Origin: an uncultured Lachnospiraceae bacterium
Lineage (GTDB): Bacteria > Bacillota > Clostridia > Lachnospirales > Lachnospiraceae
DNA: 64,000 bases
Direction of reading: 5' to 3'
NCBI GenBank assembly: GCA_948989975.1
Contig: CARHSH010000001.1
Span: 82,906-146,905, forward strand
This document shows positions 33,990 to 49,852 of the stretch, piece after piece. The position numbers were made by a program, and so were the translations under genes. The notes below the pieces were generated by a model. The model did not search any database and had not been told where the DNA came from. It worked only from the letters and a program-made list of their open reading frames with translations. Numbering within the stretch: the stretch's first letter is position 1; each line of letters starts with the position of its first letter.

Positions 33990-34280
33990 AAGAATCTTCA
34001 GGGCAGGGTGACTTTGCAAAGCAGGGGATTCCCTACCGGTGGTAAAGCCCACGAGCCGCAAGGCATGATTCGGTGACTCTTATCAAACGGCAAAAGCCGG
34101 ATAAGCGGGATTCCGAAGCCGACAGTATAGTCTGGATGAAAGAAGGTAAATGTCGTATCGTTTTTAGGCGCTTCCTGTATGCCATTTGGCTTTAAAAGAC
34201 GGCATATATAAGACGAGGGACATGGTTTGCATTGTGGGAGAACCGGCTCTGAAATAGATTGTTTCAGCGCCGGTTTTTTG
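33990..34280 (+). promoter_or_regulatory. FMN riboswitch (RFN element) with terminator-type expression platform, upstream of ribD
   Basis: Aptamer core tcttcaGGGCAGGGTGa...CCGGTGGTAAAGCCCACGAGCC...CCGAAGCCGACAGTATAGTCTGGATGAAAGAAGG. Terminator CCGGCTCTGAAAtagattgTTTCAGCGCCGG followed by TTTTTT. Confidence 0.85.
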
Positions 34281-34381: not shown

Positions 34382-35482
34382 ATGGAAGATAGGGACTATA
34401 TGCGGATTGCAATAAAAGAAGCAAAAAAGGGAGAAGGCTTTACGAATCCAAATCCGATGGTTGGGGCCGCGCTTGTGAAAGACGGGCGGGTAATTGGCAA
34501 GGATTTCCACCATAGATACGGTGGATTCCATGCTGAGCGGAATGTAATTTTAAATTGCAGGGAGCCTGTGGAGGGAGCAAAACTTTATGTGACATTAGAG
34601 CCATGCTGTCATTATGGAAAAACGCCGCCCTGTACGGATATTATCATTGAAAGTGGCATTCGGGAGGTGTATATTGGCTCAATGGACCCAAATCCGCTTG
34701 TCGCGGGAAAAGGCGTAAAGCAGTTAAAAAAGCATGGCATAAAAGTTGTGACGGGCGTTTGCGAAGCGGAGTGCCTAGAACTTAACCGCGTGTTTTTTCA
34801 TTATATAAAACATAAAACGCCCTATGTTATCATGAAATATGCGATGACGGCTGATGGGAAAATTGCGACGCGGACGGGAAAGTCAAAGTGGATTACTTCA
34901 GAAGCTGCCAGAGGACGCGTTCAGGAAAGCCGCCATAAATATATGGGGATTATGGCAGGGGTTGGCACTGTGCTTTTGGACAATCCGAGATTAACGTGCA
35001 GATTGGAAGGGAAAAGAAGTCCGGCGCGGATTATTTGCGATACGCATCTGCGGACGCCGCTTACGGCAGAAGTGGTACAGACGGCGCGTGAGATTCCGAC
35101 AATTCTTGCAACGGCAGAAACAGACAGTAAAAAGATGGAGCCTTATCAGGCAAAGGGGGTTCAGATGCTTGCCGTTCCCTTAGAAGGGGAAAGACTGGAT
35201 TTAAAAATCTTAATGCAAAAATTGGGCGAACAGGGGATCGACAGTATATTGTTGGAAGGCGGGGCAATACTGAATTATAGCGCATTAAAAAGCGGGATTG
35301 TCCATGCGGTTGAGATGTACATTGCGCCGAAACTGTTTGGCGGGACACAAGCGAAAACGCCCGTGGAAGGGCTTGGCGTAGAACTGCCGGATCAGGCGTT
35401 TCAACTGTGTGATCCAAAGATTTCCCAGATCGGGGAGGATATTTTAATTGAATGGAAGGTGGGTGTATGTTTACAGGAATAA
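34382..35482 (+). CDS. ribD: Bifunctional diaminohydroxyphosphoribosylaminopyrimidine deaminase / 5-amino-6-(5-phosphoribosylamino)uracil reductase
   Basis: MRIAIKEAKKGEGFTNPNPMVGAALV...HAERN deaminase motifs; C-terminal reductase domain. Confidence 0.85.
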   Translation: MEDRDYMRIAIKEAKKGEGFTNPNPMVGAALVKDGRVIGKDFHHRYGGFHAERNVILNCREPVEGAKLYVTLEPCCHYGKTPPCTDIIIESGIREVYIGSMDPNPLVAGKGVKQLKKHGIKVVTGVCEAECLELNRVFFHYIKHKTPYVIMKYAMTADGKIATRTGKSKWITSEAARGRVQESRHKYMGIMAGVGTVLLDNPRLTCRLEGKRSPARIICDTHLRTPLTAEVVQTAREIPTILATAETDSKKMEPYQAKGVQMLAVPLEGERLDLKILMQKLGEQGIDSILLEGGAILNYSALKSGIVHAVEMYIAPKLFGGTQAKTPVEGLGVELPDQAFQLCDPKISQIGEDILIEWKVGVCLQE

Positions 35483-36105
35483 TAGAAGAAATCGGCACAG
35501 TGCGGAGGATTGGATCGGGCAGAATCCATATTCGGGCAAAAACGGTTTTAGAAGGCGTGAAAATTGGGGACAGTATTGCCGTTAATGGGGTTTGCCTGAC
35601 GGTGACGGAATTGGGCGCGGATTTTTTTGCCGCAGACGTTATGCCGGAGACTTTTCAGAGAAGCTCTTTGGGAAAGCTTAAGACGGGAAGCGGCGTGAAT
35701 TTAGAGCGGGCGATGGCGGCGGACGGACGGTTTGGCGGGCATATTGTTTCCGGACATATTGATGGGACGGGGAAAATCCAGTCTATTACAAAAGACGGGA
35801 ATGCGGTCCGTTACCGGATTGACACATCGAAAGAGCTTTTGCGTGGGATTGTGGAAAAAGGGTCGGTGGCTGTAGACGGCATTAGCTTAACAGTTGCCGC
35901 AGTGGCATCGGATTGGTTTGAACTTTCGGTGATTCCCCATACGCTTCATGAGACGGTTTTGGAGAAGAAACGGATAGGGGAAATTGTGAATCTGGAAAAT
36001 GATATGATCGGAAAATATGTAGAGCGGCTGTTGTCTTTGAATCAGGAAGAAGAAAAAAAGCCGTCTGCGTTGACAAAAGAATTTTTGCTTCGGGCAGGAT
36101 TTTAG
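35467..36105 (+). CDS. ribE: Riboflavin synthase alpha subunit
   Basis: [10 protein letters not shown]...[11 protein letters not shown]; two lumazine-binding repeats. Confidence 0.85.
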
Positions 36106-36116
36106 GAGGGAAAAAC

Positions 36117-37322
36117 ATGCAGGCATTTAGTTCGGTGAAAGAAGCGTTAGAAGATTTAAGGCAGGGAAAAATTATTCTTGTCACAGATGATGAGGATAGG
36201 GAAAATGAAGGGGATTTTATTTGCGCGGCGGAATTTGCGACGACGGAAAATGTTAATTTTATGGCGGTGCATGGCAAAGGGCTGATTTGTATGCCGATGG
36301 GGAAGGCGCTTGTGGAAAAATTAATGCTTCCGCAAATGGTTTCGAATAACACGGATAACCATGAAACGGCGTTTACGGTTTCGATTGATGCGGTGGAAAC
36401 GACGACAGGGATTTCAGCGAAAGAGCGTGGGATTACCGCCAGAAAGTGCGTCGATGAAAACGCCGTTCCTGAGGATTTCAGAAGGCCGGGGCACATGTTT
36501 CCGCTTTTAGCGAAAAAGAACGGCGTGCTGGAGCGTAACGGGCATACGGAAGCGACAGTCGATTTGATGCGGCTTGCGGGATTAAAGGAATGCGGCTTGT
36601 GCTGTGAAATTATGCGGGAAGACGGAACGATGATGCGGACAGAGGAATTGATGGGTCTTGCGAAAGAATTTCAAATTAAGATGATTACGATTCAGGCAAT
36701 TCAGGAATACAGGAAAGTGCATGAAAAGCTGGTAGAGGAAGTTGCAATTACGAAAATGCCGACGCGTTATGGGGAGTTTTTGGCGCATGGGTATGTCAAC
36801 CGCTTAAATGGAGAGCATCATGTGGCATTGGTAAAAGGAGAGATTGGAGACGGAGAGCATTTGCTTTGCCGCGTCCATTCGGAGTGCTTGACGGGCGATG
36901 CGTTTGGCTCGATGAAGTGTGACTGTGGGCAGCAGCTTCAATCGGCGATGAAGCAAATTGAAAAAGAAGGCCGTGGGATTTTGCTTTATCTGCGGCAGGA
37001 GGGCCGCGGGATTGGGCTTATCAATAAACTTCGGGCGTATGAATTGCAGGATCGGGGAATGGATACGGTGGAAGCGAATTTGGCGCTGGGCTTTGAGGAG
37101 GATTTGCGGGAGTATTATATTGGGGCGCAGATTCTCAGGGATTTGGGCGTAAAAAGTTTGCGGCTTTTGACAAATAATCCGAAGAAGATTGACGGCCTTT
37201 CGGAGTTTGGGCTTAGCATTGAACAAAGAGTGCCGATTCAGATGGAGCTGACGCCGTTTGATGCGTATTATATGAGGACGAAGAAGAAGAAGATGGGGCA
37301 TATGTTGGAGGGGGAGTTTTAG
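36117..37322 (+). CDS. ribBA: Bifunctional 3,4-dihydroxy-2-butanone-4-phosphate synthase / GTP cyclohydrolase II
   Basis: [14 protein letters not shown], CxCGQ zinc motif in the C-terminal half. Confidence 0.85.
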
Positions 37323-37333
37323 CGGACGCTGCC

Positions 37334-37459
37334 CAGCAGATACAATTTTCCGCTGGGAGCGCTTTTGCTTGTTGACGCTCGCAGCGGCGCTAAGACGCCA
37401 AAATACGGCGTCTAAGAGCCGGCGGCGTCAAGAATCCCTGCGGCTAATTGTATCTGCTG
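37334..37459. repeat. Nested inverted-repeat (multi-stem) element in the ribBA-ribH spacer
   Basis: Outer arms CAGCAGATACAATT / AATTGTATCTGCTG. Inner stems TTGACGC/GCGTCAA, CGCAGCGGCG/CGCCGGCGGCG, AGACGCC-aaaatac-GGCGTCT. Confidence 0.6.
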
Positions 37460-37705
37460 TTCATCTGGCATTGGGGGACGGTAGGTTTGGTGGGCATTAA
37501 TGGGTATTGGGTTAGGGAGGAATTTCATGTTGGAAAGCGGGGGCTTGTGTTTGAAGCGCAGTGTAGTGGGGGTTGAATAATGGAGAATTGGACTATGGCA
37601 GGTTTAGTTTTGGGAAACTGGCTGGTTTTATCTGCTGTTTAACGGGGGATTGACGGACGGTAGGTTTAGGCAGCTGTAAAATAATAGTTAAGGAGATGGA
37701 ATGAG

Positions 37706-38173
37706 ATGAATGTATTTGAGGGAAAGATTGTTGCGAAGGATATTAGAATTGGGATTGTGGTGGCTAGGTTTAATGAGTTTATTACGGATAAGCTTCTGGG
37801 GGGAGCGGTTGACGGGCTTAAGAGGCATGAAGTGTCTGAGGATTTGATTGATGTGGCTTGGGTTCCGGGAGCGTTTGAGATTCCGTTGGCGGCGAAGGCT
37901 ATGGCGGAAAGTGGAAAGTATGATGCGGTGATTTGTCTTGGCGCGGTGATTCGGGGGGCGACTTCACATTATGATTATGTTTGTAGTGAGGTTTCGAAGG
38001 GAGTCGCTCAGGTGGCGCTTCAGTCGGGGCTTCCGGTGATGTTTGGCGTGTTGACGACGGATACGATTGAGCAGGCGATTGAGCGCGCAGGAAGCAAGGC
38101 TGGCAATAAGGGATTTGACTGTGCGACGGGCGCGATTGAGATGATTAATTTGCTGCGGGGGATTCGCGGTTAG
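37706..38173 (+). CDS. ribH: 6,7-dimethyl-8-ribityllumazine synthase
   Basis: [21 protein letters not shown]...WVPGAFEIP. Confidence 0.85.
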
Positions 38174-38187
38174 TGGGTGTTTGGAAA

Positions 38188-38240
38188 TGAAATCAGGCAT
38201 TCTTTTGCTTTTGGGCAGGAGGATGCCTGATTTATTTTTG
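38188..38240 (+). terminator. Rho-independent terminator after ribH
   Basis: AATCAGGCATtcttttgcttttgggcaggaGGATGCCTGATTT followed by ATTTTT. Confidence 0.6.
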
Positions 38241-38270: not shown

Positions 38271-38299
38271 TTGACAATCTGGAAGGGGTATTATAGAAT
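38271..38299 (+). promoter_or_regulatory. Sigma-A-type promoter for the biotin operon (TTGACA-N17-TAGAAT)
   Basis: ttgacaatctggaaggggtattatagaat. Confidence 0.45.
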
Positions 38300-38336
38300 T
38301 GGAAATGGATATTATGGAGGGGAGGGGTATGGGACG

Positions 38337-40256
38337 ATGGGTTTATCGTTTTATAGTGTGAAAATGAGGGCAAGTGAACAGGGAAAGCATATTTCAGGGG
38401 CGGAGCGTCTTGTTTTGGAGCGGGAAGTGGACGTTTGCGTGGAGCAGATGCTTGGGCGTGGGCGGAATCATTCGAAGGGGAAGGCGGATTTGCTGAATAT
38501 TAAAATGGAAAAGATTGAGGAGAATGAGATTTTATATTTGGATACACTTCCGGTTTCTACGGTTGAAGTGAAGGATTTCAGAGACGGGCTTAAGGAAGTC
38601 AGAAATTGTTTGTTGGAATTGGGGATTGTGAACGTAGAGGGGATCTTGGGGCGTTTGCCGGAAACGTATGCGATGCGTGGGGCTATGTTGTTAGATGTGG
38701 ATACGCTGAAACGGTTAGAGCCGGACAGGGAGCGTGGGGTTAGGGCTACTTATATGGACGGAGTAAGGACGGGGGAAGCTGTTTTTACGAAGGGGAAACA
38801 TCATTTTCAAGAGGCGGTTGTGCTGGCGGCGAAGGTGGCGAATGCGCCGAATATTATTGGGGAAATTTGTATTTCGGACGATCCGGATTATGTGGCGGGG
38901 TATGTCGCATCGAAGGTGTTTGGGTATCGGCGGATTACGAAAGTGAAGGAAGCTGGAAGTGAATTGGGCGGGAGGATTTTTTTGTATCGGGGGCGGGAGG
39001 AGGATGTGGCGGAGACGGTTGGCTTTTTGGAGCATCAGGCTGTGCTTGTGAGGAATGCGCCGGAACTTTTTTCGAGGAACCATAGCGAGGGGAAGTTTGG
39101 GTTTCTTAATGAGGAGCTTAAACGTCTGCGGGAGGATTTTTTATTTCGGAGTATGAAGACTATGCAGTCTGCGCAGTCCTCGTCGGTTTTATGTGATGGA
39201 AGGCGTGTGCTTTTGCTTGCTTCAAATCATTATTTGGATTTGGCCCGCCGTAAGGATGTGAAGGAGTCTGCGGAGCGGGCGCTTGACTTGTATGGAACGG
39301 GTTCGGGAGGTTCGCGGCTTACGACGGGCAATACGGTTCTGCATGAAAAATTGGAAAGCAGGATTGCAGAGTTTAAAGGGGAGGAGTCTGCGCTGCTGTT
39401 TAATTCGGGGTATGTTGCGAATCTTGCCGCAATTTCTGCGCTTATGGGAAAAGGGGACGTGATTTTCAGTGATGAATTAAATCATGCGAGCATTATTGAC
39501 GGCTGCCGTCTAAGCGGGGCGGAGATTGTAATATACCGGCATAATGATATGAGGGATTTGGAGCAAAAGCTGGCCAAGTGTCCGTTTCGGAGGGGGCTTG
39601 TGGTGAGTGATGCGGTGTTTAGCATGGACGGGGATATTTTAAATCTGCCGGAGTTTGCGCAGCTTGCGGATCGGCATCAGGCGTTGTCGATGGTAGATGA
39701 GGCGCATTCGACGGGAGTGATTGGAAGGACGGGGCGTGGGATTGTGGAGCATTATCATGGCGTATGCAGGCCGGATATTTTGATGGGGACGCTTAGTAAG
39801 GCGATTGGCAGTGAAGGCGGGTTTGTTTGTGGGAGCAGGGCACTGACGGAATTTTTAAGGCACAAGGCTCGGGGGTTTGTCTTTTCCACTTCACTTTCTC
39901 CGGCTGTGGCGGCGGCTTCAATTCAGGCGCTTGAGGCATTGGAGGAGAATCCGCAGTTGGTTTTAAGGCTTAGGGAAAATGTGTTGTTTTTTTGTGGCTG
40001 TTTACGCGAGGGAGGGATTTTGGCTGATTCAAAAAGCGCGGTGATACCGATTATGATTGGAGACGAGAAAAAGGCGATTGAGATTTCGGAGGAGCTTTTT
40101 TCGGAAGGGTATTTTATCCCTGCAATTCGTTACCCTACAGTGAAAAGAGGGAGCGCAAGATTGCGGGCGGCGCTTATGTCGGAACATTCGAAAAAAGATC
40201 TTAGGGAAGCGGCAGAAGCAATTTTGAGAGTGTGCGGAAAATATGGGATTGTATGA
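38337..40256 (+). CDS. bioWF: Fused 6-carboxyhexanoate-CoA ligase (BioW) / 8-amino-7-oxononanoate synthase (BioF)
   Basis: N-terminus FYSVKMRASEQGKHISGAERL matches BioW (B. subtilis FYSVRMRAS...HISGGERL). C-terminal half is a class II aminotransferase with the BioF-type PLP-lysine region (GTLSKAIGSEGGF). Confidence 0.7.
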   Translation: MGLSFYSVKMRASEQGKHISGAERLVLEREVDVCVEQMLGRGRNHSKGKADLLNIKMEKIEENEILYLDTLPVSTVEVKDFRDGLKEVRNCLLELGIVNVEGILGRLPETYAMRGAMLLDVDTLKRLEPDRERGVRATYMDGVRTGEAVFTKGKHHFQEAVVLAAKVANAPNIIGEICISDDPDYVAGYVASKVFGYRRITKVKEAGSELGGRIFLYRGREEDVAETVGFLEHQAVLVRNAPELFSRNHSEGKFGFLNEELKRLREDFLFRSMKTMQSAQSSSVLCDGRRVLLLASNHYLDLARRKDVKESAERALDLYGTGSGGSRLTTGNTVLHEKLESRIAEFKGEESALLFNSGYVANLAAISALMGKGDVIFSDELNHASIIDGCRLSGAEIVIYRHNDMRDLEQKLAKCPFRRGLVVSDAVFSMDGDILNLPEFAQLADRHQALSMVDEAHSTGVIGRTGRGIVEHYHGVCRPDILMGTLSKAIGSEGGFVCGSRALTEFLRHKARGFVFSTSLSPAVAAASIQALEALEENPQLVLRLRENVLFFCGCLREGGILADSKSAVIPIMIGDEKKAIEISEELFSEGYFIPAIRYPTVKRGSARLRAALMSEHSKKDLREAAEAILRVCGKYGIV

Positions 40257-48798: not shown

Positions 48799-48806
48799 AT
48801 CCGAAC

Positions 48807-49036
48807 GCCAAACAGAGCGCCGGGTATTCTGTCGGCGAAGTGTTCAGGGATTAAGGAGTTCTAAAGTATCCCATGTTTTATGCCGGTGACGGACGAAACC
48901 GCTCTAAAAGCGCCGTCCATGGCGCATTAGAGCTTCCGCAGACATCGTGTCTGCGGATTTCTGTTTGTTGAAGGGATACTTAAGAACTCCTAAATCCCAT
49001 CACAAGGCGCCAACAGAATACCCGGCGCTCTGTTCG
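48807..49036. repeat. Palindromic module IR1 (two ~66-bp inverted arms around a ~100-bp loop that itself contains a perfect 9-bp hairpin)
   Basis: Arms CGCCAAACAGAGCGCCGGGTATTCTGTCGGCG...GGGATTAAGGAGTTCTAAAGTATCCC and its near-perfect reverse complement at 48973-49036. Loop hairpin CCGCAGACAtcgTGTCTGCGG. Confidence 0.85.
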
Positions 49037-49470
49037 TCTGGTAGTTGGGGGTGGAACGTATGAGAGAGTTGGAAGTTGAAGAAAGAAGAAAGTTACGCTT
49101 TCAAGTCCTAAAGTTCATTAAAGGCGCCAATAGGAAACCCGGCGCTCTGTTCGTTTGGTAGTTGGGGGTGGAACATATGAGAGAGTGGAAGTTGAAGAAA
49201 GAAGAAAGTTACGCTTTCAAGTCCTAAAATTCATTAAAGGCGCCAATAGGAAACCCTGCGTTTTGTTGGTCTGGTAGTTGGGTGTGGAACATATGAGAGA
49301 GTGGAAGTTGAAGAAAGAAAATATGTGCGCATTAAAGACCTAAATTCCATCAAAGGCGCCAATAGAAAACCCAGCTCTAAGTTGGTCTGGTAGTTGGAGG
49401 CTGGAACGTATGATAAGGCGCTGATAGAATCTACGGCGCTCAGTTTGTCTGGTAGTAGTTAGGGAGTGAA
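49004..49470. repeat. Four tandem direct repeats of ~116 bp (copies 1-3 ~85-90% identical, copy 4 degenerate)
   Basis: Unit: AAAGGCGCCAATAGGAAACCCGGCGCTCTGTTCGTTTGGTAGTTGGGGGTGGAACATATGAGAGAGTGGAAGTTGAAGAAAGAAGAAAGTTACGCTTTCAAGTCCTAAAATTCATT. Unit starts at 49004, 49120, 49236, 49352. Confidence 0.85.
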
Positions 49471-49611
49471 ACGTATGAAAACGTGGCGATTTTTAAAGAG
49501 GTGAAAAGTTAAACAAAAATCCTAAAAACCTACACATCTATATTTATGTAGATATACCAAAACAAAAAGAAACAAAGCCAAAACCCTATCGGGCAGCCAG
49601 TAACGTAGTCA

Positions 49612-49824
49612 GGGGGTGGCGCTTGGCGGGTGGCGTTATGATTGGATTTAGAACTTCTTAACAGTCACATTTCGATTCAGGAATCCGCGAACAGGACGTT
49701 CGCGGAAGCTCCATTCACGCCATGGACGGCGTGTATGGAGCGGTTCCGTCCGTATTCAAGATAGCTGCGGGACTGTTTAGAAGTTCTTAATCCATGAATA
49801 AGTCACCCGCCAAGCGCCACCCCA
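49612..49824. repeat. Palindromic module IR2, an inverted (reverse-complement) copy of the IR1 module
   Basis: Arms GGGGGTGGCGCTTGGCGGGTG...GAACTTCTTAACAGTC and complement at 49763-49824. The loop's reverse complement aligns to the IR1 loop (ACGGACG-AACCGCTC...CGCCGTCCATGGCG...GAGCTTCCGC...GCGGATT). Confidence 0.8.
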
Positions 49825-49852
49825 TGACGGACACATTTATTTAATTATGGAT

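Follow-up and report, generated by a model that had tools for sequence, protein, structure and literature searches.

The long ribBA-ribH spacer of one gut bacterium raises the question of how two genes that are normally separated by a few tens of base pairs came to be held apart by several hundred, and whether the extra DNA serves riboflavin synthesis. The DNA in question is a stretch of 64,000 nucleotides from an uncultured Lachnospiraceae bacterium (GenBank assembly GCA_948989975.1, contig CARHSH010000001.1, positions 82,906 to 146,905 of the forward strand), called the window below and numbered from its first nucleotide, in which a spacer of 383 bp (37323-37705) lies between ribBA and ribH. 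A reading made from the letters alone had described in this spacer a palindrome, direct repeats and two mini open reading frames (ORFs), and had proposed an inserted small mobile or repetitive extragenic palindromic (REP)-like element, a small RNA (sRNA) or a leader-peptide attenuator uncoupling ribH from the upstream genes. We find that the spacer is a lineage-specific insertion in one gut Eubacterium species, and consider it probable that the inserted DNA belongs to a small family of palindromic, structured repeats dispersed over several loci and is present as a co-transcribed passenger and not as a dedicated riboflavin regulator. As a whole, the earlier interpretation is partly supported.

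The insertion behind ribBA

The rib operon of the window runs in the order riboswitch, ribD, ribE, ribBA, 383-bp spacer, ribH and terminator-like hairpin. Its known regulator is the flavin mononucleotide (FMN) riboswitch at the operon head (33990-34151, + strand; Rfam RF00050, 82.1 bits against a gathering score of 66.2). The ribBA gene (36117-37322, + strand) carries the Pfam domains DHBP_synthase and GTP_cyclohydro2 and ends in a TAG stop codon, ribH (37706-38173, + strand) carries DMRL_synthase, and the hairpin found 3' of ribH by the terminator scan lies at 38190-38233. The RibBA protein is identical to NCBI MCI9426183.1, which comes from a metagenome-assembled genome (MAG) labelled 'Eubacterium sp.', and the exact RibH and RibBA proteins are found on hundreds of metagenome contigs, one of them from a record labelled mouse gut metagenome. 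That the spacer is unusually long, as the sequence-only reading had it, is confirmed by comparison with 74 loci of other species retrieved via RibH: the ribBA-ribH gap there is mostly 0-50 bp and reaches 100 bp or more at only about nine loci.

The nearest relatives, with RibBA proteins 88-93% identical to that of the window, have gaps of 16, 26, 27, 51 and 16 bp between the two genes. In the closest of them (L082) the 27-nt spacer, ATATTTTTTATAAAGGAGATGTTGGAG, corresponds solely to the last ~29 nt of the window spacer, TAAAATAATAGTTAAGGAGATGGAATGAG. Because the match is confined to this end, we conclude that ~354 bp (37323-37676, + strand), missing from the 74 species compared and from the closest relatives with their spacers of 16-51 bp, were added right behind the ribBA stop codon, and that the ribH Shine-Dalgarno sequence, AAGGAG at 37690-37695, was retained within the remnant of the ancestral short spacer (37677-37705, + strand).

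The inserted block opens with a long hairpin. The ~125-bp multi-stem palindrome described earlier (37334-37459) holds up: its arms, 37334-37358 and 37435-37459, are 88% complementary and contain nested inverted repeats, and the RNA fold of 37330-37492 (163 nt) reaches -79.2 kcal/mol as against -56.1 +/- 3.9 kcal/mol for shuffled sequences (z = -6.0; none of 200 shuffles as good). In its full extent the hairpin is a three-way junction at 37328-37465 (+ strand), delimited by the minimum free energy fold and by the consensus of the five copies described below and scored at 192 bits by the covariance model R1; its robust portion is 37334-37459. The basal stem P1 joins 37328-37358 to 37435-37465 and encloses a mini-hairpin, P2 (37361-37368), and a long stem, P3 (37372-37399 with 37407-37431), that is closed by the apical loop AAAAUAC (37400-37406), all on the + strand.

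The hairpin is followed by a conserved 3' tail, TTCATCTGGCATTGGGGGACGGTAGGTTTGG (37460-37490, + strand), which can be aligned in all five copies and which together with the right arm makes up the first of the two ~45-bp direct repeats noted earlier. These repeats are real (37442-37490 and 37620-37669; 79% identity over 48 nt, blastn E = 4e-5 within the 64-kb window), and the second (37620-37669, + strand) is a solo copy of the right arm and tail, which folds on itself through G-U pairs (-22 kcal/mol, z = -4) and around which R1 gives a partial match (37590-37671, 15.5 bits). The repeat search also returned a weaker third repeat, a degenerate second copy of the tail (30 nt, 37578-37607, + strand) with 63-70% identity. 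Just 3' of the element tail, at 37492-37517, there is a G-quadruplex-type pattern (GGG-N7-GGG-N4-GGG-N3-GGG), which may be due to chance in a stretch with 38% G.

A dispersed family of hairpins

The first clue to a family was a metagenome contig (L093) that is 99.9% identical to window positions 34973-37431, up to a point within the palindrome's right half, and continues from there into an unrelated locus. An exact-pattern scan of JGI metagenomes for the apical hairpin gave four stretches, three of which represent one other locus and the fourth a second hybrid contig, and two further copies were reached by a HMMER scan with a spurious ORF running through the core, a route that leads to two mis-called protein clusters only. 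The family so far comprises at least five loci, at least three of them in one MAG. Copy A is that of the rib spacer, 11 nt past the ribBA stop codon; copy B lies in the purN-purD spacer of 673 bp (L094 9882-10037), 25 nt past the stop; copy C lies between spoIVA and a purine-nucleoside-phosphorylase gene, punA (L098-L106), 27 nt past the stop; copy D is found 3' of a prsA-like gene (L113 5286-5455), behind the terminator-like hairpin of that gene; and copy E is found 3' of an ABC-permease gene (L107-L109), 27 nt past the stop. The proteins flanking copies A, B and D belong to a single 'Eubacterium sp.' NCBI MAG (MCI9426183, MCI9427516/7 and MCI9427701), and the host of copy C appears to be a related Eubacterium sp. 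Because the punA-like gene is preceded by a promoter-like site, TTGCAG-17-TATAAT (L098 3750-3780; read by eye and not listed by the consensus scan), we assign copy C to the 3' region of spoIVA rather than to the punA leader.

Three public metagenome contigs change locus within the repeat itself: L093 joins the left part of copy A to the right part of copy C (breakpoint 37431), L096 the left part of A to the right part of B, and L110 the left part of D to the right part of A (2590-2625). These hybrids are either assembly mis-joins (chimeras at low coverage) or real recombinants between copies. The earlier proposal of an inserted small mobile or REP-like element, for which extra copies elsewhere had been named as the check and a single copy as the contrary outcome, is thus supported in substance, by a family of at least five loci, by a vacant orthologous site in the nearest relatives and by contigs that jump between loci.

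A separate observation concerns the gene ends in front of two of the copies. RibBA of the window has two additional residues ahead of its C-terminal Phe (LEGEF, as against LEF in L082), which stem from an extra GGGGGA (window 37305-37322), and purN, upstream of copy B, likewise terminates in GGAGGGGGAGT (L094 9843-9857). The common gene-end sequence may be a coincidence or a preferred landing context.

The unit that the copies share consists of a 12-nt 5' flank (consensus GGACGnTGnn), the ~138-nt hairpin and a tail of 25-30 nt (CAWCUG..UUUUGGGGGACGG), and the interior of the hairpin is likewise common to the family: P1 and P3 are long, the latter with fixed mismatches, and P2 is tiny. Hairpin identity among the five independent copies is 77-88%, and that of the apical P3 82-100%, copies A and C agreeing at 60/60 positions of the apex. 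The consensus of the five contains 53 pairs, with 97% of the alignment cells forming standard pairs, and double compensatory changes occur in 13-14 of the 53, some of which show four pair types; when the partner is slid by 1-3 columns at most two such pairs are found, and all of 500 shuffles fall short of the observed values. One-sided changes amount to a single G-U at one pair, in two copies. Because compensatory changes are abundant and one-sided changes nearly nil, the pairing itself is under a strong constraint, which looks Watson-Crick-like.

Downstream of the five hairpins, alignment of the regions with one another shows no homology above that of shuffles, and each copy is accompanied by tandem units of its own, similar to the tail of that copy. 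Copy B is followed by about eight units of 40 nt and copy E by repeated GGATATGGATTGGGTGG units. Behind copy D (L111/L112/L113 5460-5800) there are 5-7 near-identical 38-nt units, ATTTGGCTATTGTATTTTGGATGCAGTAAGTAAGTGTT, with a difference of two units between strains, and the spacer between prsA and the ABC transporter genes that holds this array measures 602 bp in one strain and 675 bp in another. The poverty in C of the downstream regions is typical of the intergenic DNA of this genome.

These data also bear on the view that the spacer regulates ribH in cis, as a leader-peptide attenuator, a second riboswitch or a structural switch, which would uncouple ribH from the upstream genes, and they make it very improbable. 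Three features speak for such a role. Mini-ORF 1, MLESGGLCLKRSVVGVE (37527-37580, + strand), has a start codon and a good Shine-Dalgarno sequence, GGGAGG, 6 nt upstream, and the right arm of the rib copy can pair alternatively with the tail (duplexes of -15.7 and -17.7 kcal/mol, p = 0.02 and 0.002), while the left arm is able to pair with the second right-arm copy as an inverted repeat. Of the two mini-ORFs that the sequence-only reading had described as each preceded by a strong ribosome-binding site, the first is as stated; the second, MENWTMAGLVLGNWLVLSAV, exists at 37580-37642 (+ strand) instead of 37570-37632, is preceded by a weak G-run only, and overlaps the tail-derived repeats at 37578-37607 and 37620-37669. 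We judge neither to be a gene, and the spacers of the other copies contain no conserved counterpart of either. Pairing of the right arm with the tail was likewise considered as a conserved structural switch and rejected, being significant in the rib copy alone.

The scan found neither a terminator-like nor a promoter-like site within 37323-37705; the stem of copy A continues into UUCAUCUGGCAUUGGGGG, where an intrinsic terminator or attenuator would have a U-tract after its G+C-rich hairpin, and the supposed attenuator has neither terminator nor antiterminator to act on. All 4227 Rfam models, run on 37200-37800 at E up to 10, returned only a chance 13-bit snoRNA match, and hence no riboswitch or other curated RNA. 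The same hairpin, moreover, stands in unrelated contexts (in a pur operon and after spoIVA, prsA and an ABC permease gene), and close relatives operate the same operon with a gap of 16-51 bp. With neither a U-tract terminator nor a promoter-like site in 37323-37705, transcription presumably continues through the element into ribH.

Downstream of their hairpins, copies A (37508-37580) and E (L107 1049-1125) both have a strong Shine-Dalgarno sequence with an ATG-started mini-ORF of 17-19 codons (TTAGGGAGGAATTTCATG and TTAGGAGGAATTTTATG, respectively). The two peptides are not convincingly alike, and the same Shine-Dalgarno context is found at the starts of real genes, for example purD.

Beyond the rib operon lies a bioW-bioF fusion (38271-40256), in which a 6-carboxyhexanoate-CoA ligase and a class I/II aminotransferase (Pfam Aminotran_1_2) form a single polypeptide of 639-661 amino acids, with bioD next to it. 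The fusion has a strong, near-consensus promoter-like site of its own at 38271-38299.

Relation to the TwoAYGGAY RNA motif

TwoAYGGAY (Rfam RF01731) is an orphan RNA motif described by Weinberg et al. in 2010 (PMC2864571), whose authors remarked in the supplement on its large P1. Its loops have been hypothesised to be binding sites of CsrA, a role that is proposed only (PMC4333381). Two copies of the family align with RF01731 over its full length, copy B with 35.5 bits (E = 4e-4 for the stretch searched) and copy E with 30.7 bits (E = 5e-3), scores that do not reach the gathering score of 43 bits; copy A gives no match at E up to 10.

The likeness to TwoAYGGAY lies above all in the architecture, with two hairpins on a junction enclosed by a very long P1, and in the conserved CGG...GCGUCA 3' of hairpin 2, both of which are seen in the folds, in the covariation and in the covariance-model alignments, the last placing CGG and GC(G/A)UCAA on conserved positions of RF01731. 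The apex reads ACGCC-AAAGGAC-GGCGU in copies B and E and GCGCC-AUGGAC-GGCGC in TwoAYGGAY, with GCC-A(A)AGGAC-GGC in common, as are the 3' junction CGGnnGCGUCAAG, the CGG after hairpin 2 and the GCGUCAAG that closes the junction. TwoAYGGAY RNAs, which are common in gut metagenomes, also occur in gut Clostridia, including two true copies in this window. The differences concern first the terminal loops that give the motif its name: none of the copies has two AYGGAY loops, those of the rib copy being CUUU(U) and AAAAUAC and those of copies B and E including one AAGGAC each. In all copies the first AYGGAY hairpin has shrunk to a mini-hairpin of 2-4 bp, GCGCUUUCGC, and the second loop has no GGA in copies A, C and D, where it reads AAAAUAC. 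The conserved 3' tail and the arrays derived from it, furthermore, fall outside the Rfam model. The element represents a new, loop-less variant whose architecture is akin to that of the known but uncharacterised TwoAYGGAY motif. Distant homology between the two seems to us somewhat probable, and the family may plausibly have branched off from the TwoAYGGAY motif family and degenerated.

The two bona fide TwoAYGGAY RNAs of the window lie at 48840-49005 (- strand; RF01731, 135 bits) and 49636-49801 (+ strand; RF01731, 120.5 bits). The former resembles the family in having an array of its own, a tandem repeat at 49004-49413 (+ strand; TRF and repeat search) with 3.5-4.5 copies of a 116-nt unit built from the right outer arm of the RNA and its flank; the latter is wrapped in a 25-bp outer stem (49608-49632 with 49804-49828), found as an inverted repeat. 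The two RNAs stand in opposite orientations in one non-coding gap of 1 kb (48799-49851) between the genes for a class-A penicillin-binding protein and a ROK-family protein, and each is enclosed by an extra outer stem of 25-27 bp beyond the Rfam model. A resemblance between the tail of the family and the flank of a true TwoAYGGAY RNA at 49021, although the top match in the window, scores 15 against a background of 14 and is not used as evidence.

One alternative is that the element has a function as an RNA of the TwoAYGGAY type, either an sRNA or a module of 3' untranslated regions that binds a regulator such as CsrA and is selected at each locus, with the arrays as extra binding motifs. The sub-threshold full-length likeness to RF01731 and the hypothesis of CsrA sites in the TwoAYGGAY loops favour it, as do the sense orientation of 5/5 copies relative to the neighbouring genes, the occurrence of G-U pairs on the + strand in about four independent cases as compared with one C-A, and the enrichment of GGA-type motifs in the arrays behind copies D and E. 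These two arrays repeat short G-rich motifs, including (A/U)YGGAY, and in this are reminiscent of CsrB/RsmZ-type protein sponges. The enrichment of GGA or (A/U)YGGAY, however, is limited to the D and E arrays (z = 3-6), where it is driven by tandem repetition, and is not seen in those of copies A (p ~0.1), B and C or in the T1 array; with this inconsistency, with rib-copy loops that have no GGA and with no independent transcription unit evident, a role of the downstream regions as a CsrA sponge seems unlikely to us.

The functional-RNA alternative also has to account for the loss of the GGA loop in copies A, C and D and of the first AYGGAY hairpin in all copies, for the position of copy D right behind a terminator-like hairpin, which leaves no room for a promoter, and for a covariation that is almost purely from one Watson-Crick pair to another (14 double changes, with one one-sided G-U pair in two copies). 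The scans of the spacers, that of copy A among them, revealed no promoter for an sRNA. Of the sRNA suggested by the sequence-only reading there remains the sub-threshold TwoAYGGAY likeness, set against a missing promoter and a rib copy without the defining loops, and we regard this alternative as decidedly unlikely.

Probable mode of spread and possible consequences

If the spacer is a dispersed repeat, it fits poorly into the mobile classes that the sequence had first suggested. Miniature inverted-repeat transposable elements (MITEs) have conserved terminal inverted repeats with target-site duplications, occur in large numbers per genome and go with a cognate transposase; here the arms vary with compensation, the apex is conserved, and the copies counted are few (at least three in one MAG, at least five in all, four exact apex matches in the metagenome scan). 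REP and REPIN elements are palindromes of 20-40 nt in very high copy number, as opposed to a hairpin of ~138 nt in low copy number. The family shares with REP/REPIN-RAYT and IS200/IS605-derived elements the nature of extragenic hairpins whose pairing is maintained across copies, which are strand-specific and which lie near gene 3' ends; REPs differ in their length of 20-40 nt, their very large numbers and their link to a RAYT or TnpA gene, of which we saw nothing here. Of the earlier mobile or REP-like reading, the inserted dispersed repeat therefore stands and the assignment to REPs or to classical MITEs does not, given the low copy number, the lack of a target-site duplication and the conserved apex.

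Other analogues are the ERIC/IRU elements of enterobacteria and Yersinia and the Correia elements (CREE/NEMIS) of Neisseria, imperfect palindromes of 100-170 bp in intergenic gaps, including those within operons. They are co-transcribed as long hairpins, which are possible RNase targets altering the stability of flanking cistrons, and their presence varies between close relatives. Our family is like them in being palindromic, intergenic and of similar size, in occupying operon gaps and in its presence or absence among close relatives, to which transcription may be added. It has no sequence relationship to either and differs from their tens to hundreds of copies with conserved termini (and, in Correia elements, TA duplication) in its handful of copies, its conserved apex with covarying basal stems and its lack of target duplication.

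A further possibility, which is compatible with the account of a dispersed passenger repeat, is that the hairpin matters solely as DNA, recognised in its single-stranded or cruciform state by a recombinase or an HUH-type enzyme; the orientation of the copies would then follow the replication strand and the RNA fold would be irrelevant. The almost exclusively Watson-Crick nature of the compensatory changes is what such a site would predict, and the mismatches and the bulge conserved in an otherwise invariant apex are of the kind seen in protein-recognised hairpins. The copies are all found on the G-rich strand, presumably the leading one, copy D lies behind a terminator, the flanking arrays vary between strains in a way that suggests replication slippage beside the hairpin, and contigs recombine or mis-join within the repeat. 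Against this possibility, we saw no gene for a candidate enzyme beside any copy and recognised no motif of a cleavage site or target, and nothing relevant was found in IMG/VR (three pattern scans) or in the plasmid and phage collections (distant blastn); the bona fide TwoAYGGAY relatives, moreover, are regarded as RNAs. We hold a purely DNA-level role to be possible, though on the unlikely side.

Several observations weigh against our own account of a dispersed repeat related to TwoAYGGAY. No transposase or other mobilising gene is seen beside any copy, no target-site duplication is recognised by eye at the borders of copies A-E, and in all copies it is the apex that is kept, with varying and compensated arms, and not the termini, the reverse of a classical MITE. 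The apparent copy number is low, with only four exact apex stretches in the metagenome-wide scan and no further copy in the 64-kb window by blastn or by covariance model R1 with filters off. The sense orientation of all five copies and the few G-U pairs on the + strand could mean a selected RNA function. As to the relationship with TwoAYGGAY, formal membership fails at the gathering score, the reciprocal search of R1 against the true copies gives weak apical-hairpin matches only, and the hairpin shape by itself inflates covariance-model scores, as a spurious mir-129 match of 23 bits shows.

The history of the locus under the dispersed-repeat account, which we still prefer, would be as follows. 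The element would have landed immediately behind the ribBA stop codon, leaving intact both the stop codon and the ribosome-binding site of ribH, and the rest of the spacer would have arisen by partial tandem duplication of the right arm and tail of the element and subsequent decay of those copies. Selection on pairing would keep the hairpin, most simply if propagation were limited to well-paired copies. The element would be co-transcribed with the rib genes, and ribH, read through it, would use its ancestral ribosome-binding site. The sole effect predicted by analogy to ERIC and Correia elements is that the stem-loop of -79 kcal/mol may act as a barrier to 3' exonucleases or as a site for a double-strand RNase, and in this way could uncouple the stability and levels of ribD-E-BA from those of ribH.

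On this account the odd layout of the rib operon is explained without a new riboflavin regulator. A bolder hypothesis, for which we see only a limited chance, is that TwoAYGGAY-type hairpins in general are the structured module of a self-propagating element that inserts just behind genes and gives rise to tandem copies of its 3' arm and tail, with the rib, pur, prsA and spoIVA copies as a sub-lineage without AYGGAY loops that is still spreading. If this is true, an unknown machinery, protein or nucleic acid, would recognise the conserved apex with its fixed mismatches and not the GGA loops.

These natural TwoAYGGAY-like variants separate what is conserved, the long Watson-Crick stem and the apical stem with fixed mismatches, from what is dispensable, the AYGGAY loops, which makes them useful for testing the CsrA idea. 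For users of MAGs the three hybrid contigs carry a practical warning, that in public metagenome assemblies loci unrelated to each other are joined through the repeat, by mis-assembly or by recombination. There is finally a speculative link to the host. RibH consumes 5-amino-6-ribitylaminouracil (5-A-RU), the precursor of ligands of mucosal-associated invariant T (MAIT) cells, and an altered expression ratio of ribD and ribBA to ribH in a mouse-gut commensal could change the escape of 5-A-RU.

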